A DNA stretch of 64,000 bases, from contig CAVVTZ010000002.1 in assembly GCA_963751275.1 (NCBI GenBank), positions 1 to 64,000 on the forward strand, given 5' to 3'. Position numbers and translations under genes: made by a program. Shown here piece after piece: positions 54,673-64,000 of this stretch. Within the stretch, counting starts at the first letter, position 1; each line of letters opens with the position of its first letter. The notes below the pieces were generated by a model, which saw nothing but the letters and a program-made list of their open reading frames with translations, was not told the DNA's origin and made no database searches. This DNA comes from an uncultured Gemmatimonadaceae bacterium (lineage in GTDB: Bacteria > Gemmatimonadota > Gemmatimonadetes > Gemmatimonadales > Gemmatimonadaceae).

Positions 54673-57189
54673 ATGCATCACGGGAAGACCAGCACACGCG
54701 TCGCGCTCATCGCCGCAGTGATCTGCTTCAGTGCGCGCAGCGTGGGGGCGCAGGATTCCGTGTCCACCGCGGCCGGCGCGGAGTATCGGATCTCGGGGCC
54801 GCTCGGATGGCTCGATCGCTGGCTCTTCGGGTCGCGCTATCGCGCCCTCTGGACGGACACGGTGCGCGTACAAGTGTTGCACATGCCCACGTCGTTCGGC
54901 GGTCTCGCGCCGGTGAGCGCCGACACAGGGCTTCGCAGCGGCGTGCTGCACCTGCGCGCACCGCGGGATCTGGCCTACACCTTCCGTCTCTCGAACCCGC
55001 CGGTCAGCTCGGCGCTGCCCGATGAGCTCCGGCTCGGCGTCGTCACCGGTCCCGTGCAGGATCTCGTGAGCGCGCTGCATCCGGGGGCGCCGCTGGTCGT
55101 ACCGCTGCTCGCGCGCACCGCCGGAGTCGGCGACCGGCCGGCCGATCTGCGCTTCCTGGCGACTGACTCCGCGCTCGGCGCGCTCACCTCGACCTTCGGC
55201 GACCGGCTCGGGTTCCTCGCGCCCGCACCGGAGCCGGCGCACGCGGTCACGACGCGCGATCTCATCGCCGAGCGGCGGAACGGCGGCGCGCCGGCGATCG
55301 ATGCGCGCGCCTACCTGCGCGAGCGTCTGTTCGATGTGTACGTCGGTGAGACCGAACTCTTCCCCACCGAGGCGCGCTGGCGCCAGCGCGGCGATCCGGA
55401 GCGATGGACTCCCGAGGCGCGCGATCGCGACGCCGCGTTCGCGAACTTCGATGGCCTCATGGCGGCGCTCGCGCGCATTGCGGTGCCGCCCTTCATGAAG
55501 TTCGGAGCGACATACGACGAGTCGCTCGGCGAGACGGCGTACCTGCTCGCCGTGGATCGCACCTTCCTTGCGCCGCTCGACTCCGCCGCGTGGGACAGCG
55601 CCGCGCGCGCGATGCAGGCGGCGATCACGGATTCCGCGATCGACGCCGCCGTCGCCGCGATGCCGCCGGCCTGGCGCGCGGCCGACGCCGCCCCGCTCGC
55701 CGCCACCCTGCGCGCGCGCCGCGACCGATTGCCGGCGGCGGCGCGCGTTTTCTATGGCATGGTGTCCAAGCAGATCGACCTCTATGCCCCGAACGCCGCC
55801 ACGACGGTGCTCGCCTGGCGCGACGCGACCGGCGAGCTGCGCGTCCGGATCGCGGATGTCGACCGCGTGTTCACGGCGAGCCAGACGGCCGAGGTGCGGA
55901 TCTTCCTCGAGGGGCGCGAGCAGACCGTGCTCGTGCGCGGCGCGGCGTACGGCGGTCCGAACCTCCGCGTCGTCACCGGAACGGGCCACGCCACGATCAT
56001 CGATTCGAGCACGGCCGTCGCGCGCACGCTCTTCGTCAACGACAGCGCGGGGAATGCCACCATCGACTACGCCGCCGCGGGCGCACCGCCGAGGGCGACG
56101 CGGAACCCGGTGGCGCCGCCGGATGTGACGCCGCAGGGCACCGGCTCGGCCACGCGTCCGGCCGACGGGGTGCGCTATGGCCCCGTCATCTGGTTCGATC
56201 TCTTCGGCAATCTGGGCGTGCTGCTCGGCGGCGGCGTCGAACGCATCCGCTATGAGCGCGGCTTCGTGCCCTGGAGCTCCCGGCAACGGCTGCGCGCGGC
56301 GTACGCGACCGAGCCGAATGAATACGCCGTGGAGTACGACGGCACGTTCCGCTTCGAGCATGCGCAGTCGGATCTCAATCTCGCGCTCGGCCGGTCGGGG
56401 ATCGGGATCCTTCGGTTCTACGGATACGGCAACGAGACCGTGCGCGACCAATCGGATGCGTTCTACTCGGCGAAGCAGGTGGCGTATACGGTCGCGCCAT
56501 CGGTCCAGTTGCCCACGGCATCGCGCGACACGATCAGCGTGGGCCTCGTGTACAAGGATGTGAACACCAACACCGATGGACAGCGATACATCACCATCAC
56601 GAAACCGCTGGGCTATCCGGAATTCCGCGAAGCCGGTGCGCGGATCATGGTGCGCCACGACAGCCGCGACTCACCGGTCGCCGCGCAGCGCGGCTGGCTG
56701 CTCATCGGCGGCGCTGATTATTTCCCGACCACGCTGGATGTGCGCCGTCCATTCGGCGGCGTGAACGCCGCCGCCTCGACGTACTGGACGCCGGGCCCGG
56801 GCGAGGATCTGACGATCGCCGTGCGCGTCGCCGGCCAGAAGATCTGGGGACCGTTCCCCGTGTTCGAAGCCGCCTACATTGGCGGCGCCACCACCGTGCG
56901 CGGCCTGCCGCCGCAGCGATACGCCGGCAGCGCGAGCCTGTACAGCAATCTCGAAGCGCGCTTGAAGGTGGCCCCGCTCGCGTTCGTGGTGCGATGGGAT
57001 TTCGGCGTGAGCGCGATCATGGACGCGGGGCGCGTGTTCGTGAACGGCGTGGAGTCGAACGAGTGGCACGCGGGGCTGGGCGGCGGGATATGGGCGATGC
57101 TGCCGGACCGGTCGGCTATGATCTATTTGACCGCGGTGCACAACGGCACGACGTGGGGGATCGACGCGGGGACGAAGTTCATCTACTGA
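54673..57189 (+). CDS. Omp85 (BamA/TamA-like) barrel protein with a long N-terminal domain
   Basis: Signal peptide; RFYGYGNET, HDSRDSPV, IGGATTVRG..RYAG, DAGRVF..WHAGLGGG. Confidence 0.8.
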   Translation: MHHGKTSTRVALIAAVICFSARSVGAQDSVSTAAGAEYRISGPLGWLDRWLFGSRYRALWTDTVRVQVLHMPTSFGGLAPVSADTGLRSGVLHLRAPRDLAYTFRLSNPPVSSALPDELRLGVVTGPVQDLVSALHPGAPLVVPLLARTAGVGDRPADLRFLATDSALGALTSTFGDRLGFLAPAPEPAHAVTTRDLIAERRNGGAPAIDARAYLRERLFDVYVGETELFPTEARWRQRGDPERWTPEARDRDAAFANFDGLMAALARIAVPPFMKFGATYDESLGETAYLLAVDRTFLAPLDSAAWDSAARAMQAAITDSAIDAAVAAMPPAWRAADAAPLAATLRARRDRLPAAARVFYGMVSKQIDLYAPNAATTVLAWRDATGELRVRIADVDRVFTASQTAEVRIFLEGREQTVLVRGAAYGGPNLRVVTGTGHATIIDSSTAVARTLFVNDSAGNATIDYAAAGAPPRATRNPVAPPDVTPQGTGSATRPADGVRYGPVIWFDLFGNLGVLLGGGVERIRYERGFVPWSSRQRLRAAYATEPNEYAVEYDGTFRFEHAQSDLNLALGRSGIGILRFYGYGNETVRDQSDAFYSAKQVAYTVAPSVQLPTASRDTISVGLVYKDVNTNTDGQRYITITKPLGYPEFREAGARIMVRHDSRDSPVAAQRGWLLIGGADYFPTTLDVRRPFGGVNAAASTYWTPGPGEDLTIAVRVAGQKIWGPFPVFEAAYIGGATTVRGLPPQRYAGSASLYSNLEARLKVAPLAFVVRWDFGVSAIMDAGRVFVNGVESNEWHAGLGGGIWAMLPDRSAMIYLTAVHNGTTWGIDAGTKFIY

Positions 57190-57198
57190 ACGGCGGGA

Positions 57199-57368
57199 GT
57201 CGAACCCCGAACCACGTACTTGGTACCCCGAACGCCGTGAGGCGTGAGGCGTGCGATGAACTGATTGAACGGCGTGAGGCGCGACCCGAACGCCGTGAGG
57301 CGTGAGGCGTGCGATGAACTGATTGAACGGCGTGAGGCGCGACCCGAACGCCGTGCGGCGTGAGGCGA
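57199..57368. repeat. left array: family C end sequence plus 58-nt tandem units
   Basis: Units start at 57227, 57285 and 57343 (partial); internal GGCGTGA heptamers. Confidence 0.9.
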
Positions 57369-57439
57369 ACGGACTGGACGGCGGGAGGGCGTGATCCAAC
57401 CCGGTGAGGCGGGAGGCGGCGAAGGACTCGGCGTGAGCG

Positions 57440-57936: not shown

Positions 57937-58140
57937 CGCCTCACGGTGTCGGGTCGCGCCTCACGCCGTTCAATCAGTTCGTCGCACGCCTCACGCCTCA
58001 CGGTGTCCGGGTCTCGCCTCCCGCCGTTCAGTCAGTTCGTCGCACGCCCCGCCTCACGGTGTTCGGGTCTCGCCTCCCGCCGTTCGTTCAGTTCGTCGCA
58101 CGCCTCACGCCTCACGGCGTCCGGGTCTCGCCTCACGCCT
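57937..58140. repeat. right array: about 3.5 copies of the same 58-nt unit, inverted
   Basis: TCGCGCCTCACGCCGTTCAATCAGTTCGTCGCACGCCTCACGCCTCACGG matches the reverse complement of the left unit with one mismatch. Confidence 0.9.
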
Positions 58141-58145
58141 GTGAA

Positions 58146-58177
58146 AGTGGCCCGAGGATGACTCTCCCCGGGCCACT
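58146..58177 (-). terminator. probable terminator of the 58210 gene
   Basis: AGTGGCCCG / CGGGCCACT stem with a short T run on the minus strand. Confidence 0.5.
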
Positions 58178-58209
58178 CGAACAGCGCCCACCCGCCAGCG
58201 ACTACGACC

Positions 58210-58818
58210 CTAGCGCGTGACCTTCACCGCCAGTGCTTCCGTCGCGCGCAGGACGATCTGATCGCCCACCTTCACTTTCGAGAACGCAGCAACCGAAGGA
58301 TCGACGTGGAACGTCATCATGTTCCCCTGCGACGTCTTCACCGTGAGGATGCGGTCCTTCTCATCCACGGCCGTGACGTTCGCTTCGATCTCCTTCACCG
58401 TGACATTGGTCACCGCCGGCAGCCCCTTGGGCGCGATCGTCACCGTGTTCCCGTGCGCCGTCACCGGCGGATCCGTCGCCTCGCGCAGGAAGATCGCGAT
58501 CGATTCAACGTAGGTCACGGTCACGCTGTCGCCGCTCTTCACCTGCGACAGGTCCACGCCGTCCTTCTTGGCGGTGAACGCGTGCATCGTCCCGTTCGGC
58601 CCCCGCAACACGACGTGGCGCGACTGCTGGTTCACCGCGAGCACGATGCCCTTCCATTCCTGCACGTCGCCCATGAGCGCGCCGGCGATCGGCTGCTTCG
58701 TTGCGGGCGCGGCGGCCGCAGCGGGCGCCGGCGGGGCCGCGGGCTTCTGCGCACTCGCCGTGACCGCGATGGCCGACGCGATGGCGGCGAGACTCAGTAC
58801 ACTCATGCGATGGTTCAT
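58210..58818 (-). CDS. secreted hypothetical protein with two internal OB-like repeats
   Basis: Signal peptide; VLAVNQQSRHVVLRGPNG..QVKSGDSV and VTAVDEKDRILTVKTSQG..KVKVGDQI. Confidence 0.75.
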   Translation of the reverse strand: MNHRMSVLSLAAIASAIAVTASAQKPAAPPAPAAAAAPATKQPIAGALMGDVQEWKGIVLAVNQQSRHVVLRGPNGTMHAFTAKKDGVDLSQVKSGDSVTVTYVESIAIFLREATDPPVTAHGNTVTIAPKGLPAVTNVTVKEIEANVTAVDEKDRILTVKTSQGNMMTFHVDPSVAAFSKVKVGDQIVLRATEALAVKVTR

Positions 58819-58937
58819 TCGATCCTCCATAACCGGTTCATTGGCGCGGCCGGACGTTCTCCGCGCTGGGCAGAATCTCCACCCGGCGCAGAGGGGTCGC
58901 AAGAGGGGAAAGAAGCGGCCTACTATAGTAAGGTCCG

Positions 58938-59072
58938 TCGAACCCCAACCGCGTTATCGGTCCCCCGAACGCCGTGAATCACGAGTAGTTCGTCGTATCA
59001 CGCACCACTCGTGACTCACGGCGTTCGGGGGACCAATGACGCGCTTCGAGGTTCGACGAACGGAGTTCGGGG
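58938..59072. repeat. family C palindrome
   Basis: 28-bp arms 58959-58986 / 59007-59034 with one mismatch; outer GTCGAACC / GGTTCGAC. Confidence 0.85.
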
Positions 59073-59165
59073 TTCCATTACCGGATTTCGGGGTTGCGCA
59101 GTCCATAAATGCGCGACGTGGCCGGCTTGCGCCGGCCACGTGTCTCGAGATCCGCTCCGCTCAGC

Positions 59166-59498
59166 TCACATCACTTCGAGCTGTCCCTCGTATCCCCCGG
59201 GTGTGTCCATCCCCAGTGTGTCGCCGGCGTAGTCAATGTACACGCGCGCCAGTCGCAGCTGGTTGTACACGGTGCCGACCCCCGGGCAGTGCTCGGCCAC
59301 CGTTTGCGCGAGCCGCGCATCTTCCAGGCTGTTCACCACGCCCAGCAGCGTGGCCTCGCCGTTCGCGACGTACACATCCACGTCGCGCGAATCGAGATCG
59401 GCGCAGGCGCGCAGCGCGTCCGTCAGATGCTCGCGAATGAGCGCGTCATTCTGCGGACTCATGTCTGCGTCGAATGGGTAGCGGGCGATGGTGATCAT
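59166..59498 (-). CDS. BON domain protein
   Basis: DALIREHLTDAL..VDVYVANGEATLLGVV..A..CPGVGTVYNQL. Confidence 0.8.
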   Translation of the reverse strand: MITIARYPFDADMSPQNDALIREHLTDALRACADLDSRDVDVYVANGEATLLGVVNSLEDARLAQTVAEHCPGVGTVYNQLRLARVYIDYAGDTLGMDTPGGYEGQLEVM

Positions 59499-59809
59499 CG
59501 GTCGTTCCTCGATCCAGCGGCCCGCTTCGCGCCGTCGCGCATGCCGCCGCTCCGGCCACGGGGCCGTTCGATCTCGCCATCCGCCGCGTACGCGTCGCCG
59601 CTCTCGTCCGGGCTCCCGCTCGAGGCGGAAGCGGGCTCATGCCGGCCGTCGGACGGTTCCTTGATCTGCGGCCCGTCCGGCTCGGCGCCACCTTCATCTT
59701 CCCATGTCTGGATCTCCTCGCGCCCCTCTGCCTTCCGTGTACTCCGCTCCGTGTGACGCAGCGGGACGTGCGACGGCTTGTCGGTGATCTTGGCCTTCTG
59801 CTTCGCCAT
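59495..59809 (-). CDS. hydrophilic low-complexity hypothetical protein
   Basis: GGAGG RBS; IQTWEDEGG motif; ATGA overlap with the BON gene. Confidence 0.65.
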   Translation of the reverse strand: MAKQKAKITDKPSHVPLRHTERSTRKAEGREEIQTWEDEGGAEPDGPQIKEPSDGRHEPASASSGSPDESGDAYAADGEIERPRGRSGGMRDGAKRAAGSRNDR

Positions 59810-59860
59810 GGCACTATCCTCCAATGAGAATGAAAGAAGGGAATTGCTGGGATTCCCGGG

Positions 59861-60634
59861 TCAGCTGCCGCTCGCCGGGGCGAGCGGCGTGATCGCATCC
59901 TCGAACACGACCGTCTCCACCGGCGCGCCCTTGCCGCCGACGATCACGATCGTGTAGGCCTTGCCGGCCTCGAGGTGCAGCGGCTTGAGGATCATCGGCT
60001 TCACGCTCTTCGCGTTCTGCCGCACGTCGAGCGTGATGGTCGAAGGGGCGAGGTCCTTGTAGCCGGCCTCGTCGGTGAAATCGACGCCCTTGAACAGCGC
60101 CGTCTTCTCGCCGAGGATGGCGAAGTCGGCGTTCTTCACGGTGGGCGATGCGTTGATCACGCGCAGCCGGGCCTTGCCCGAATCCGGTTCCACGTCGTCC
60201 CGCACGACCTTGAGCTGCGTGCCCCCCTTGCCGTCGGGCAGCACGAGCGCGGTGTAGCGGATGCCATCGGCCATCATCTCGTGGTCGTCGGCGAGCACGT
60301 TGTTCTGGTCGGCGGTGAGCACGCGCAGCGCGATGAGATTGTCCTTCACCTCCGCGTACGGCGTGACCTGCTTGTACAGCACATCGCTGAACAGTGTGCG
60401 GTCGTCGCCGGTCAGCACGACGTGGTGATCGGACGGCAGCGCATTGACGACGCGCACCATCGACTTGCCGGCGCGCGCGGCGTCGGTGCCGGCCGGCGAG
60501 ACGGAGGCGCCGCCGTTCGCGGTGCTGACCACGGGCTGCGCGGTCTTTGCCTCACGGCACGCGGCGGCGGCCACGACGAACAGGGCGAGCGCCAGCATCC
60601 GGGTGGAATCGATCGTGTTCCGCATGGCGCTCAC
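59861..60634 (-). CDS. DUF4397 domain lipoprotein
   Basis: Lipobox AAAC; VRVVNALP and LRVINASP repeats; LEAGKAYTIVIVG. Confidence 0.85.
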   Translation of the reverse strand: MSAMRNTIDSTRMLALALFVVAAAACREAKTAQPVVSTANGGASVSPAGTDAARAGKSMVRVVNALPSDHHVVLTGDDRTLFSDVLYKQVTPYAEVKDNLIALRVLTADQNNVLADDHEMMADGIRYTALVLPDGKGGTQLKVVRDDVEPDSGKARLRVINASPTVKNADFAILGEKTALFKGVDFTDEAGYKDLAPSTITLDVRQNAKSVKPMILKPLHLEAGKAYTIVIVGGKGAPVETVVFEDAITPLAPASGS

Positions 60635-60840
60635 ATCGTCTTGACGTTGGAGCGCTCGAACTCCGCGACCTGGCGCTCGATCTCGTCGCGGCCCTCGCCG
60701 TACTTCCGCTGGAGGACGCCCACGAGCTGATCGCGTTTTCCGGCAATGCGCTCGAGGTCGTCGTCAGTGAGCTTGCCCCATTTCTCGCGCACCTTGCCCT
60801 GCATCTCCTTCCATGAGCCTTCGATCTGATTCCAATTCAT
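60631..60840 (-). CDS. csbD: CsbD/YjbJ family stress protein
   Basis: MNWNQIEGSWKEMQGKVREKWGKLTDDDL..GKRDQLVGVLQRKYG. Confidence 0.92.
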   Translation of the reverse strand: MNWNQIEGSWKEMQGKVREKWGKLTDDDLERIAGKRDQLVGVLQRKYGEGRDEIERQVAEFERSNVKTM

Positions 60841-60868
60841 ACACGCCTCCATTTGTTTTCGGCGAAGA

Positions 60869-60980
60869 GAAACACAAAAGGCGCGCCTGAGCGCCGCGTG
60901 TGCGGCGTTCTAGCGCGCCTTCGACTGGCAGCCCCACTTCGCTGCCCGGCAAGGCGACCCGGCCACCGACCCCCGGGCCT
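60869..60980 (-). promoter_or_regulatory. conserved structured leader plus terminator, copy A (before csbD)
   Basis: Minus strand: CCTTGCCG GGCAGC GAAGTGGG GCTGCC AGTCG AAGGCGCGC...GCGCGCCTT TTGTGTTT. Confidence 0.7.
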
Positions 60981-61036
60981 CGGTCCTTCCTGAACTTCCT
61001 TCCTACCCTACGCCACACCCCACGGTTCCGTTGCCG

Positions 61037-62140
61037 TCACGAGTCCAGCAAGACCGCCACCGGCTTGAGCCGGTCCACCTGGTCGCAGATCACCTTGATC
61101 ATCACGGTGAGGGGCACCGCGAGGATCGCCCCCGCCACCCCCCACATCCACGCCCAGAAGATCAGACTAACGAATACCGCCACTTTGTTGAGCGGCAACC
61201 CGCGGCCGAGTACCAGCGGCGTAACGATGTTCCCGGTGAAGGTATGGATCGTGAAATAGACCGCGCTCACGATCAAAGTCTTCTCGATCCCATCGAACGT
61301 GATCAGGCACGCGCCGCCGATCAGCACCATGCTAATGAACGCGCCCACGTACGGGATGAAATTCAGCACCGCCGCCACCGCGCCCCAGAGCGCGCCGTTC
61401 GGCAGGCCGGCGATGGCGAGCAGTCCCCACGTCGTGAAGCCAAGACCGAGACTGATCACGGTGGTCAGCCCCAGATAGCGCGCGGTCTGATGCTCCGTCT
61501 CCGCCACGGCGTGCATGATCCGCTCCTGGTCCGCCCGCTCGGCGAGGATCATCGCCACCTTGCGCTTGAAGAGCTGATCGGTGGAGGCGAGGAAGTAGGT
61601 GAGGAAGAGCACCGTGAAGAATCCGGCCAGCGCGTTCATCGTGCCGCTCGTGAAGCGGGACATCAACGCGGGATCCTGCACCGCCACCTTCATCGTCGAT
61701 CCGGTCGTCGAGCTCGCCGCGCTCGACATCTGCTCGGCGGTCTGCTGAATGGTGGTGATCGGCCGCACGAGCTTCCGGATCTTCTTCTGCAGTTCCGGCA
61801 CCGTCTCGGGCGCGCGGCTCAGCCACTCCGACGCGGGGCGCGCGAGCAAGACGCCGGCGGCGCCAAGCAGCGCGGCGCTCCCGAACACGAGCACGGCCGC
61901 GCCGACCACGACCGGCACGCCGAGCCGGCGCAGCCAGCGCACTCCGGGTCCGAAGAGCAGACTCAGGAGCACCGAGATGGCGATCGGCACGAGCAGCGCG
62001 GAGGCCCATTTGAGGATCGCGAGCGAGACGAGTACGAGCAGCGCGATCTGCGGTGAATTGCGGCGGAAGGTCTTCACGACTGGCGCGCTCACGCGATGGA
62101 CGCTCTCCCGCACCTCGAGCACGAGCGGGGCGGCGCTCAT
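61037..62140 (-). CDS. AI-2E family transporter
   Basis: LLVPIAISVLLSLLFGPGV, LNFIPYVG, GNIVTPLVLG, WGVAGAILAVP. Confidence 0.9.
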   Translation of the reverse strand: MSAAPLVLEVRESVHRVSAPVVKTFRRNSPQIALLVLVSLAILKWASALLVPIAISVLLSLLFGPGVRWLRRLGVPVVVGAAVLVFGSAALLGAAGVLLARPASEWLSRAPETVPELQKKIRKLVRPITTIQQTAEQMSSAASSTTGSTMKVAVQDPALMSRFTSGTMNALAGFFTVLFLTYFLASTDQLFKRKVAMILAERADQERIMHAVAETEHQTARYLGLTTVISLGLGFTTWGLLAIAGLPNGALWGAVAAVLNFIPYVGAFISMVLIGGACLITFDGIEKTLIVSAVYFTIHTFTGNIVTPLVLGRGLPLNKVAVFVSLIFWAWMWGVAGAILAVPLTVMIKVICDQVDRLKPVAVLLDS

Positions 62141-62409
62141 GCCGCGGCCCGGTCCTGCGGCACGCGCGCGCTGCGCGACGTGCGCATCCGGCGGAGCACT
62201 TCTCGCGCGCGGCGCACATGGCGCCTCCGCTCGATGAGCACATCCACGGCGAGCGCGAGCACGAGTCCGATGCCCACGAGCGCCATGACGCCGTAGAGCA
62301 TCGCGCGCCCGCTGCCCACCGGCGCCGTGTTGATCCGCGAGATCCCGAGCGCCGCCGCGGCGGCGCCTTGCAGGATGAGTACGACGGCTGAGAATCGCAT
62401 GGCGATCAC
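62137..62409 (-). CDS. small two-TM hypothetical protein
   Basis: Two hydrophobic helices; 4-nt overlaps with both neighbours. Confidence 0.6.
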   Translation of the reverse strand: MIAMRFSAVVLILQGAAAAALGISRINTAPVGSGRAMLYGVMALVGIGLVLALAVDVLIERRRHVRRAREVLRRMRTSRSARVPQDRAAA

Positions 62410-62597
62410 CTCGCGCGTTCAGTGGCGGACTTGTTCACCCAGAGGGGAAGGCCGGCCGGCAGCGCGCGCGCCGCGGCGATGAGCAGGCGCCGCACTTCCG
62501 ACGCCGGGTTCTTCGCTTCGCGCCGGCGCTCGAAGGCCTGCTGGGACATTGATTCGGTTGCCGATCCACCGCATTCGGACTGCTGCTCTTGGTTCAT
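62406..62597 (-). CDS. small hypothetical protein, 63 aa
   Basis: GAGGAG RBS before MNQEQQ; overlaps the next gene. Confidence 0.55.
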   Translation of the reverse strand: MNQEQQSECGGSATESMSQQAFERRREAKNPASEVRRLLIAAARALPAGLPLWVNKSATERAR

Positions 62598-62624
62598 GGC
62601 TCGCTCCTCGCGTGCGGGTGCCGG

Positions 62625-62733
62625 AAGAACGAAGGCGCGTCGGCCGCCACCGCTAGGTTGGCGACCAACGCGCCTTCGACTGACGAAGCCTTCGCTTCGC
62701 CCGACAAGGGGGACCGGCCATTGCACCGGCCCT
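62625..62733 (-). promoter_or_regulatory. conserved structured leader plus terminator, copy B
   Basis: Minus strand: CCTTGTCG GGCGAAGC GAAG GCTTCGTC AGTCG AAGGCGCG...; 20-bp terminator stem with two G-U pairs, then TTCTT. Confidence 0.7.
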
Positions 62734-62775
62734 TCCGTCATCTATGACTGCACCGCCCCGTAGGGCCGAAATTGT

Positions 62776-62925
62776 CTACCGCGACTTCGTGCTGCGCTTG
62801 CGGTTCGACTTGCCTGCCTTCTGAAGGGCGATCGCCACCGCCTGCTTCTGCGGCTTCCCCTCCTTCATCTCGGTCTTGATGTTCTCCGAGACGGTCTCTC
62901 GTGACGATCCTTTCTTGAGCGGCAT
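62776..62925 (-). CDS. small basic protein, 49 aa (below the ORF-track cutoff)
   Basis: [59 protein letters not shown]. Confidence 0.85.
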
Positions 62926-62948
62926 GGTCTCCTCCACCACGATCACGG

Positions 62949-63048
62949 AAAACAAAAAAGGCGCGAGAGATCGTTGTGGCTGATCTCTTCGCGCCTTCGA
63001 CTCGCGAGTCTCTTCACTCGCCCGCCAAGGTGGCCGCGTGAGCGGCCT
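62949..63048 (-). promoter_or_regulatory. conserved structured leader plus terminator, copy C
   Basis: Minus strand: GGCCGC TCAC GCGGCC A CCTTGGCG GGCGAGT GAAGAG ACTCGCG AGTCG AAGGCGCGA...TCGCGCCTT TTTTGTTTT. Confidence 0.7.
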
Positions 63049-63068
63049 ATGTCGTACTACCTGTCACC

Positions 63069-63134
63069 AAGCTACGTGTTCCCGGGATTCGCGCAAGGGG
63101 GGCCCGGGATGGAATCCATGTGACGCATTGCACA
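63069..63134 (-). promoter_or_regulatory. candidate sigma70 promoter with an upstream CRP/FNR-type box
   Basis: Minus strand TTGCGC (63091-63096), 16 nt, TAGCTT (63069-63074); TGTGA-CGCATT-GCACA at 63119-63134. Confidence 0.45.
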
Positions 63135-63173
63135 AACGCGCGGCCCCGGGCACGCGGCGTGTTCATGTCTATA

Positions 63174-63318
63174 GAAGGACAACAAACCGCTTTGACAGGA
63201 TTGACGGGATGAACGGGACAACTGCAGGATGACTGCCCTGCGCCTGGCGCGCAGGGCAGTCATCCTGCAGTTGTCCCGTTCATCCCGTCAATCCTGTCAA
63301 AGCGGTTTGTTGTCCTTC
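63174..63318. repeat. family A palindrome (core facing outward)
   Basis: Perfect 70-bp arms 63174-63243 / 63249-63318, loop CTGGC. Confidence 0.95.
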
Positions 63319-64000
63319 ATACGTGCTCAAGGAGGAGCTCGAGTTTGTGCCGCAGATCCCCCAGCGCCTTCGACTTGAACGCCCCCTTGGTCTCTTCCAG
63401 CACCGTGACCGTCTCCTTCACCGCCATCTGGAATTGCGCGCCGCGAGGGCAGTTCATCAGCTGGCACGGATGCTGGTCTACGGTCTGCTTCGACAGCGCC
63501 TTCCCCAGCTGTTCCAGGTCGGTGAGCGACCCCATCACGTTCCGCAGCGTGAGCGTGAGGAAGAGGTCCACCGGCACGGCGCCCGCGCCGCCGCCGAGCT
63601 TGGAGATGTGCTGGAACTCGTCGCGCCACGAACTGAGCCGCTCCTCCGTCTTCCGCATCGCCTGAAAGGACCGGAAACGCTCGACCGCGCCCCGCACCCG
63701 CTCGAGCAGCTCGGAGAACGCCACCGGCTTCGTGAGATAGGCCACGACGGGCAGATCGATGCACGCGATCGCGCTGCGCACGGATGGGAATCCCGTGAGG
63801 ATGATGATCGGCAAGCCCCCGGCCTGCGCGGCGATCTGCCGCACCAGCGCCAGATCCGAATTCCCGGGCATTCTCGAGATCGGTGATCAGCAGATCGAAA
63901 TCGCCGGCGCCCGCGGCCCGCAGCGCCTCCGCGCCGTCGCGCACCGTCACGCACTCGTAACCCTCGCCGCGCAACAGATCGGCGGTCGCGCTCGCGAACG
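63317..64000 (-). CDS. response regulator receiver protein (frameshift near 63872; start lies beyond the window)
   Basis: GYECVTVRDGAEAL..FDLLITDLE, then MPGNSDL..PIIILTG..YLTKPV. Confidence 0.85.

Follow-up and report, generated by a model that had tools for sequence, protein, structure and literature searches.

We have analysed a window of DNA, that is, the whole stretch of 64,000 nucleotides (nt) of contig CAVVTZ010000002.1 from an uncultured Gemmatimonadaceae bacterium, and describe a leader RNA of approximately 105 nt that precedes each of three transcription units on its minus strand. These leaders, named A, B and C, stand before genes of a general-stress type and beside a gene for a response regulator. 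They share the same order of elements, which begins with a hairpin whose sequence varies (P1) and continues with CCUUGNCGG, a further hairpin of fixed overall length (P2) and N-AGUCG; behind these come AAGGCGCG and CGCGCCUU, which enclose a variable interior, and a U-rich tract. The leader and this unusual regulator together suggest an undescribed way of switching on a stress regulon. A preliminary description had reported three such minus-strand leaders with a common order of elements, and all of them were found where it had placed them, with scores of 87-101 bits in a covariance model (R1). This model was built from 15 same-genus sequences, and its structure, written by hand, comprises only the pairs of P2 and of the terminator base. 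The leaders and their parts are as follows.

60874..60984, minus strand: leader A, preceding a csbD-like gene; R1 match of 87.2 bits, also recognised by sequence and folds
P1 ~60979-60957, CCUUG from 60954, P2 60946-60927 and AAGG 60921-60918, minus strand: parts of leader A
~60922-60877, minus strand: terminator of leader A, followed by a U tract
62628..62739, minus strand: leader B, preceding two small open reading frames (ORFs) and an AI-2E transporter gene; R1 match of 91.8 bits
P1 62732-62711, CCUUG from 62709, P2 62701-62682 and AAGG 62676-62673, minus strand: parts of leader B
62678-62630, minus strand: terminator of leader B, with an interrupted U tract
62954..63060, minus strand: leader C, preceding the gene of a basic protein of 49 amino acids (aa); R1 match of 100.7 bits
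P1 63047-63032, CCUUG from 63030, P2 63021-63004 and AAGG 62997-62994, minus strand: parts of leader C
62998-62957, minus strand: terminator of leader C, followed by a U tract

We confirmed that the observation of three leaders is real and right in detail. The 13-mer AGTCGAAGGCGCG occurs exactly three times, always on the minus strand and within 2.1 kb, while the mean in 100 shuffles was 0.01 and none of them reached three; exact CCTTGNCGGGC is restricted to the same three sites. CCUU and AAGG are 37 nt apart in A, B and C alike. The stems differ in sequence and pair as had been claimed (GGCAGC/GCUGCC; GGCGAAGC/GCUUCGUC, which includes one G-U pair; GCGAGU/ACUCGC). When the leaders were folded alone and compared with shuffles, B (z -7.4) and C (z -5.9) were clearly more stable, and A was weaker (z -2.0). 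The AAGGCGCG...CGCGCCUU stems form a G+C-rich stem-loop with a U tract directly behind it, as in an intrinsic terminator, and the base pairs of this stem covary (97.9% paired). The U tract has four to six U in A and C and is interrupted in B (UUCGUUCUU). A simple terminator scanner flags copy A alone; the loop of C has 9 nt, and in B the interruption of the U tract applies. A start codon with a ribosome-binding site had been noted about 25-30 nt past the U tract, and start codons with a Shine-Dalgarno-like sequence were found 33, 30 and 28 nt past the model match of A, B and C, respectively.

The genes downstream of the leaders, as judged by their ORFs and by Pfam, are those named in the preliminary description (CsbD-DUF4397-BON, two small ORFs with AI-2E, and a small basic protein).

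60631..60840, minus strand: csbD-like gene opening unit A (PF05532, E 2.3e-20)
59861-60634, 59495-59824 and 59166-59498, minus strand: DUF4397 gene (PF14344), 109-aa ORF and BON-domain gene (PF04972), continuing unit A
62406-62597, 62137-62409 and 61037-62140, minus strand: 63-aa ORF, 90-aa membrane-like ORF and AI-2E family transporter gene (PF01594, E 4.2e-50), forming unit B
62776..62925, minus strand: 49-aa lysine/arginine-rich protein of unit C, an ORF whose ribosome-binding site lies 28 nt past leader C

The 49-aa protein of unit C has no match in Pfam or NCBIfam, and it is conserved in a same-genus genome (G005).

On the level of RNA structure, we examined the conservation of each helix in relatives. 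In an alignment of 78 rows, P2 and the terminator base are 94% paired, 15 of 15 pairs have changes on both sides, and 0 of 500 shuffles were as good; this alignment was fitted by R1 and is hence biased toward those pairs. Outside R1, we found an extended helix in which C1C2U3U4 pairs with A34A35G36G37, followed by G5:C32, N6:N31 and C7:G30, with G33 bulged. The extended helix is 88.8% paired, with changes on both sides in 6 of 7 pairs (19 cells); none of 500 shuffles matched this, and controls in which the helix was slid reached 24-65%. Compensated variants of CCUU:AAGG include CCUC:GAGG, CCUG:CAGG, CCAG:AUGG and CUUU:AAAG, and those of the inner pairs include C5:G32, U6:A31 (seven times), C6:G31, G6:C31 and, in copy H of the same genome as the window, U7:A30. 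The variants of AAGG are also matched in the 3' arm of the terminator (AUGG/CCAU, CAGG/CCUG, GAGG/CCUC). Because AAGG covaries both with CCUU and with the terminator 3' arm, we consider that both pairings are selected and that they are mutually exclusive.

The antiterminator proposed earlier, in which CCUU:AAGG would exclude the terminator, is backed by these compensatory changes and also by folding of the nascent transcript. When the RNA of A, B or C is cut before the terminator 3' arm, its minimum-energy fold consists of P1 and the hairpin closed by CCUU:AAGG. At full length, the terminator fold gains the advantage, by 5.7 (A), 10.1 (B) and 5.8 (C) kcal/mol. Considering that the terminator fold is more stable at full length, the default state would be termination, and read-through would need a stabiliser of the early fold. 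As the R1 structure covers P2 and the terminator base only, P1 was judged by folding single leaders and not by aligned covariation: in 72 of 84 leaders, only 0-2 nt separate CCUU from the best hairpin of the preceding 36 nt, and the stem sequences are unrelated. The core has a length of 34-40 nt (mode 37), and the terminal loops, of 3-11 nt, are conserved neither in length nor in sequence. The strand is fixed by G-U pairs and by R1 matches on a single strand, in agreement with the earlier remark that the G-U pairs of copy B work on the minus strand only; on the reverse strand, R1 matches just the terminator part, with 17-23 bits. These results support the view that the element is a strand-specific, conserved 5' leader RNA with an intrinsic terminator.

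To place the leaders among described RNAs, region 58000-64000 was compared on both strands with the 4227 models of Rfam 15 by cmscan at E <= 10, and no family matched the leaders, which accords with the earlier remark that it was not recognised as a described riboswitch class. A microRNA-model match on the terminator palindrome of leader B was rejected as spurious (24.9 bits against a gathering score of 79), and the remaining matches in this region are likewise spurious microRNA models on long palindromes elsewhere. No description of the leader or of the output domain of the regulator was found by full-text searches of the literature or in recent preprints (bioRxiv supplements excluded).

The preliminary description had suggested a search of genomes with a covariance model as a check, and such a search revealed a family that reaches beyond them, covaries and keeps its 5' leader position. 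An alignment of the three copies with MAFFT and RNAalifold was left unused, as P1 and the terminator interiors were misaligned. A strict pattern search detected a fourth copy just beyond the window and copies in same-genus genomes. With R1, the genome of the window (G000) contains eight copies at E < 1e-7, six of them in C2:60.8-74.2 kb, where they cluster in one island of about 14 kb, and the others on C9 and C1. Matches at E <= 0.01 occur in 18 of 151 genomes of a family sample and in 20 of 151 genomes of a phylum sample, where all of them belong to two families of one order (4/31 in f1 and 15/71 in f2, plus G000 itself); the 48 sampled genomes from ten other families gave 0 matches. As many as 12 matches per genome were seen in relatives. 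Some relatives carry tandem leaders before one gene, namely L048:1501-1608 and 1644-1756 before a DUF1328 gene, and L060:1501-1606 and 1671-1786 before a csbD gene.

A pattern scan of public records gave at least 120 stretches, 80 of which were rescored with R1. The titles of the records with the pattern place the leader family in Gemmatimonadota/Gemmatimonadales. A few full-length matches in records titled Solibacteraceae or 'uncultured bacterium' represent a second lineage that really carries the system, with the variant AGUCG(U)AAGGCGCA...UGCGCCUU. Among its members, L232, L233 and L235 have a core with an extra U (AGUCGUAAGG) and a compensated terminator base, AAGGCGCA/UGCGCCUU. Most of the non-Gemmatimonadota matches listed in the scan cover the terminator half only and were set aside as chance. 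L088, in a record titled Alcanivoracaceae, is a fuller match of 45 bits, and a profile search of its genome detected no regulator. The leader family is widespread and was previously undescribed.

Without exception, the copies stand ahead of genes that point the same way, with start codons mostly within 20-60 nt. In the genome of the window, the genes led by copy F are those of Ku, LigD, a ferritin-like protein and an FAD oxidoreductase; a DUF1328 gene follows copy D, and a 964-aa PAS histidine kinase gene follows copy E. Leaders D and E stand back to back on opposite strands at G000:C2:66958-67261, just beyond the window. Copy H is followed by a conserved, cysteine-rich protein of 56 aa without a family match (G000:C1, downstream of 32978). 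In relatives, where the ORF calls are heuristic in G+C-rich DNA and some are probably wrong, 18 of 46 submitted downstream ORFs match Pfam at E <= 0.001: CsbD (4), DUF1328 (2, one under the family cut-off), Ku (1), DUF892 (2), sensor kinase or HAMP (3), sigma-54-type regulators (3) and GerE/LuxR (3). The sensor kinases among them are of the PAS/HAMP type. As a group, the genes behind the leaders are of the general-stress and regulatory kinds.

Upstream of the leaders, the pattern TTGNNN-N16-18-TANNNT was found within 130 nt in 38 of 84 cases (shuffled mean 1.8, maximum 6). At 25 of 27 sites of a stricter subset, 31-42 nt lie between the end of the -10 hexamer and CCUU, and from this position we infer that the RNA starts a few nt before P1, as a true 5' leader behind unremarkable promoters. 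In the window, a site of this kind was read from the sequence upstream of leader C.

63069..63096, minus strand: promoter-like TTGCGC-N16-TAGCTT upstream of leader C, a putative promoter

A strict sigma-70 scanner reported no promoter in 60700-63350. Three leaders (L050:1501, L051:1501 and L139:397) have sigma-54-like TGGCAC-N5-TTGC boxes (-24/-12) in place of sigma-70-like ones. The occurrence of the same leader behind sigma-70-like and sigma-54-like patterns is expected for a control module that acts after initiation. Three other leaders precede genes of sigma-54-type activators. Two further candidates were considered for promoters. GGAAC-N17-GTAG, upstream of A, C and D, was dropped as a promoter of the extracytoplasmic function (ECF) type, the recurrent signal in relatives being TTGNNN-N16-18-TANNNT. 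The conserved blocks of the leader itself were rejected as -35 and -10 elements because their 'spacer' is a covarying hairpin.

Several repeats surround the leaders. A near-perfect palindrome of about 100 nt (63195-63297) lies between the stop codon of the regulator gene and the promoter-like site of leader C; its microRNA-model matches (E 2e-8, under the gathering score) are spurious, and it may be a terminator or a repeat element. Farther downstream, inverted arrays of 58-nt tandem repeats (57187-57393 and 57949-58139, with arms of up to 100 nt that are 93% complementary) flank about 600 nt, and a related hairpin with 47-nt arms is present at 58947-59046. Similar words, of the GTTCGGGG type, are found again ahead of copies G and H, which lie on other contigs.

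The regulator gene lies directly upstream of leader C and is itself preceded by the PAS kinase gene, so that the order is leader E, kinase, regulator, leader C.

63317..64000, minus strand: response-regulator gene, seen as ORFs, cut by the end of the window, with an apparent 1-nt frameshift near 63871-63880

An intact orthologue of 260 aa is encoded at L031:1705-2487, and the proteins of relatives typically have 241 aa. The only Pfam match of the regulator is the receiver domain (PF00072, E 5.3e-23), in which D13, D14, D57, T85 and K107 are invariant in 34 sequences, as is proper to a receiver of this family. The C-terminal output domain of 125 aa is predicted to have four helices and contains 13 invariant residues in a row, LTLRNVMGSLTDL, together with the conserved stretches CQLxNCPRG and VLEETKxAFKSK. 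NCBIfam gave no match to it. A protein Atlas search with the output domain returned one unnamed cluster at 0.90, and the regulator family comprises 688 protein clusters that are labelled merely 'response regulator' in databases. In the full-length model (predicted local distance difference test, pLDDT, 72), the receiver part scores 79-96 and the C-terminal part 39-65. The output-domain stretch 'RNVMGSL' is faintly like the HPt motif 'HxLKGS', a likeness that no tool supported.

We counted the leader and the regulator in three samples of genomes, of which the phylum and family samples overlap, including G000, G124 and G128.

Phylum sample, 151 genomes: both 16; RNA only 4; regulator only 2; neither 129
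Family sample, 151 genomes: both 10 (all carriers of the regulator); RNA only 8; regulator only 0; neither 133
Second lineage, 101 genomes: both 21; RNA only 2; regulator only 5; neither 73

Among the RNA-only genomes of the phylum sample, one has a strong leader (G256, where a profile search confirmed the absence of the regulator) and three have weak matches (E > 0.002); of its two regulator-only genomes, one holds a partial regulator and the other a regulator at 32% identity. The family sample has one strong RNA-only genome (G015) and seven weak ones that resemble false positives. Within single genera, the two components are present or absent together: three of four genomes of genus g60 have both and G070 has neither, and in genus g91 the leader occurs in two of five genomes and the regulator in the same two. 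A leader on the same strand follows 58-260 nt past the end of the regulator gene in 11 of 16 genomes of the phylum sample and in 10 of 10 of the family sample. In the second lineage, such an adjacent leader follows 9 of 15 regulator genes examined, and the others are 2-8 kb off; one genome of this lineage has two regulator genes, each with its own leader behind it. The regulator is the only gene consistently seen beside the leader in both lineages, where the other neighbours were not surveyed systematically. In our view, the strongest point in favour of a linkage is that it recurs, with one and the same gene order, in two lineages.

What the comparisons establish is a family of RNAs with alternative pairings that stands before genes and is linked with the regulator; for its working, the following mechanism can be proposed. 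Each unit would start with a cis-acting attenuation leader transcribed from an ordinary promoter. The emerging RNA would fold as P1 and one long irregular hairpin, in which P2 is extended by C7:G30, N6:N31, G5:C32, the bulged G33 and CCUU:AAGG. After synthesis of the 3' arm CGCGCCUU, AAGG would be captured by the more stable terminator, and transcription would stop about 30 nt before the gene. Under stress, the PAS histidine kinase would phosphorylate the regulator, and the phosphorylated regulator would bind the two-hairpin form and keep AAGG in the antiterminator, so that the polymerase reads through. Read-through would turn on the regulon, including the kinase-regulator operon itself. Since leader E heads the 964-aa PAS kinase and the regulator, autoregulation is implied. 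As eight units of this genome begin with one type of leader, a single two-component system would turn on a general-stress regulon at a step past initiation, and the units concerned include csbD, DUF1328, Ku-LigD-ferritin, sensors and the kinase-regulator operon. We regard regulator-dependent antitermination of this kind, which would be ANTAR-like in its working and yet no member of the ANTAR class, as somewhat probable, with the binding, the direction of the switch and the signal as its predicted parts. The preliminary description had suggested an ON-switch that responds to a ligand or an RNA-binding protein under osmotic or stationary-phase stress. Of this, the protein gains weight from the co-occurring regulator, and the osmotic or stationary-phase signal would follow only from the gene content.

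A wider reading, which we offer tentatively, is that a receiver protein with a new RNA-binding output domain (not ANTAR, CAT or HutP) and this leader form a third major class of protein-dependent antitermination. It would be the master switch of a general-stress, desiccation and DNA-repair regulon in Gemmatimonadales and a second soil lineage, in place of an alternative sigma factor, and it would be auto-amplified via the leader of its own operon.

Several observations weigh against regulator-dependent antitermination. On the side of the RNA, CCUG faces AAGG uncompensated in four leaders. In addition, CCUU:AAGG sequesters only 4 nt of the terminator, and a shortened hairpin still forms beside the U tract when this pairing is forced. 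Since the shortened terminator persists, this pairing may be too little by itself to stop termination, as would fit the action of a bound factor. On the side of co-occurrence, strong leaders stand in two genomes, G256 and G015, in which no regulator was detectable; the ORF upstream of the leader in G256 is HD-domain-like (identified by eye) and not a regulator, and no regulator lies between the two divergent leaders of G015. Five genomes of the second lineage carry the regulator without an R1 match. The co-occurrence may also partly reflect joint inheritance of one stress island, the related genomes not being independent.

On the side of the protein, the regulator gene of this genome is frameshifted at ...DLE|MPGNSD.... 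In same-genus genomes, G004 and G002 have frameshifts at other positions, and the gene is intact in G005 and G001. Because the positions differ, the frameshifts look like assembly indels, which is the likely explanation, and pseudogenisation is a possible one. The output domain had nothing in Pfam at E <= 10, nothing below E 0.28 in a profile search of PDB sequences, and nothing at E <= 0.001 by Foldseek against the PDB, where the query was a low-confidence model (pLDDT 68 and predicted template modelling score, pTM, 0.36 for the output domain alone). A wide VIA-align search gave generic helical hairpins only (Z <= 8.5).

We therefore weighed other explanations for the leader. It could be a true riboswitch, in which the irregular region of the extended P2 (G5, C7, G8 / A29, G30, C32, G33) is the site where a small stress signal, for example an alarmone, cyclic dinucleotide or ion, docks and stabilises the antiterminator without a protein, the regulator being a mere member of the regulon or island. 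The anatomy is aptamer-like, with invariant unpaired nucleotides between covarying helices, and a tightly constrained core (34-40 nt, mode 37) is joined to a standard terminator as expression platform. Some riboswitch classes show multiple and tandem copies, and here too there are many copies per genome and tandem copies in relatives; the strong leaders kept without the regulator in two genomes point the same way. On the other hand, the near-complete co-occurrence and the conserved order of regulator and then leader in two lineages are not expected of a metabolite sensor, the conserved core is very small, and the gene set is regulatory and general-stress, with no single pathway or transporter that would suggest a candidate ligand. 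Such a riboswitch appears unlikely to us. Because leader and regulator turn up together in three samples, with the regulator gene mostly the immediate upstream neighbour of one copy, the evidence from genome comparison leans to a protein effector, and a ligand riboswitch would be the less likely of the two.

It is also conceivable, although we find it doubtful, that something else acts on the attenuator, such as another RNA-binding protein, NusA/NusG, cold-shock-type chaperones, Rho, the polymerase itself as in phage put RNAs, temperature or the speed of transcription. In this case, the regulator would control the island otherwise, for example by binding DNA or a protein partner. The exceptions to co-occurrence would then be less surprising, as would an output domain like no known RNA-binding fold, and there is a precedent in the put sites of phage HK022, where a two-hairpin RNA acts directly on RNA polymerase. 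Opposed to this are a k-mer survey upstream of the leaders, which revealed no operator-like DNA motif beyond the -35/-10 hexamers, the presence of the same leader on different promoter types, and the standing of the regulator as the sole gene consistently seen beside the leader in both lineages (within a comparison that was not a systematic survey of neighbours).

A role of the conserved blocks as promoter or operator signals in DNA, or as a duplicated repeat family, with no functional RNA, is disfavoured and highly improbable. The fixed spacing between the two blocks and the several copies in one 14-kb island would suit it. Against it, the stems change in sequence yet keep pairing (including one-strand G-U pairs), the model matches one strand only, the copies invariably precede same-orientation genes, separate promoter-like hexamers stand upstream, and the family persists across two families of a single order as well as a second lineage.

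Regulator-dependent antitermination would have consequences beyond this locus. To our knowledge, it is not known how most non-model phyla organise their general stress response. Here, one short RNA element marks a regulon directly in the genome sequence, with eight units in this genome and up to 12 in relatives, and this regulon spans small stress proteins, Ku-LigD end-joining repair, ferritin-like proteins, sensors and regulators. The leader also points to a specific, testable regulator among the 688 generically labelled clusters. Should the regulator bind the leader, two-component signalling would gain a new RNA-binding output domain, and a new antiterminator class would be at hand; failing this, the leader would be a strong candidate for a new riboswitch class. 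Being small and modular, and found behind different promoter types in relatives, the leader would be handy for reporter assays and as a genetic part.

Among known systems, the closest in working are the ANTAR regulators, which, once phosphorylated, form dimers that bind a pair of hairpins incompatible with a terminator (PMC3369931). The system described here shares several traits with EutV, AmiR and NasR and their targets (PMC3369931, PMC12591593): its 5' leaders go together with a response regulator of a two-component system, an intrinsic terminator comes right behind a pair of tandem hairpins and has some nucleotides in common with the second of them (here AAGG), and each genome holds several leaders, which form a regulon. 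Here, the operon of the regulator would itself be controlled in this way, through copy E. The target RNAs of ANTAR proteins have hexanucleotide terminal loops with A at position 1 and G at position 4 (PMC3369931). In the leaders described here, loops of 6 nt occur in only 9 of 83 P2 and 13 of 84 P1 hairpins, position 1 of the P1 loop is A in 6 of 84, and it is in the irregular interior of the second hairpin, not in the terminal loops, that the conserved nucleotides are found. The regulator has no ANTAR domain (PF03861), its Pfam match being PF00072 only, with nothing at E <= 10 in the C-terminal 125 aa, and its targets are general-stress genes and not a catabolic pathway. A whole-genome search for PF03861 was uninformative, as its control was detected in 0 of 14 genomes. 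Considering the lack of an ANTAR domain and of A1/G4 hexaloops, we concluded that the leader system is no member of the ANTAR class.

The CAT-domain antiterminators (BglG, SacY, LicT; also listed in PMC12591593) and their RAT RNAs are similar in having one irregular hairpin that shares a few nucleotides with the terminator and prevails over it only with a protein bound (PMC3369931). Unlike these, the leader here has an additional, obligatory P1 hairpin, and its partner is a phosphorylatable receiver protein that is not regulated by the phosphotransferase system. The CAT_RBD domain (PF03123) had 0 matches in the genome of the window, which is 83% complete, in a search whose control was detected in 4 of 14 genomes.

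The nearest item found in print is the YjbJ motif (weak riboswitch candidate WRC-39-1; PMC11109978). It is likewise a two-hairpin candidate leader, with an intrinsic terminator as its second hairpin, upstream of a CsbD-family gene, and its authors also raise a possible protein factor; as described there, it is confined to Streptococcus, with 40 representatives and one gene family. The leader reported here stands before genes of many families, in Gemmatimonadales and in another lineage, and it is by these descriptions only that we set the two apart.

Terminator-type riboswitches also combine a conserved sensor fold with a mutually exclusive terminator behind it, and share the multiple and tandem copies. 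The present leader differs from them in that no Rfam 15 family matches it at E <= 10 and in that a dedicated protein gene travels with the RNA.

In terms of gene content, the regulon resembles that of PhyR-NepR-sigma EcfG in Alphaproteobacteria, where a response regulator governs a regulon of the CsbD, DUF1328, Ku, DUF892 and BON type. That system works by partner switching on an alternative sigma factor at promoters, whereas the element shared by the units described here is a transcribed leader with a terminator, behind ordinary-looking promoters.

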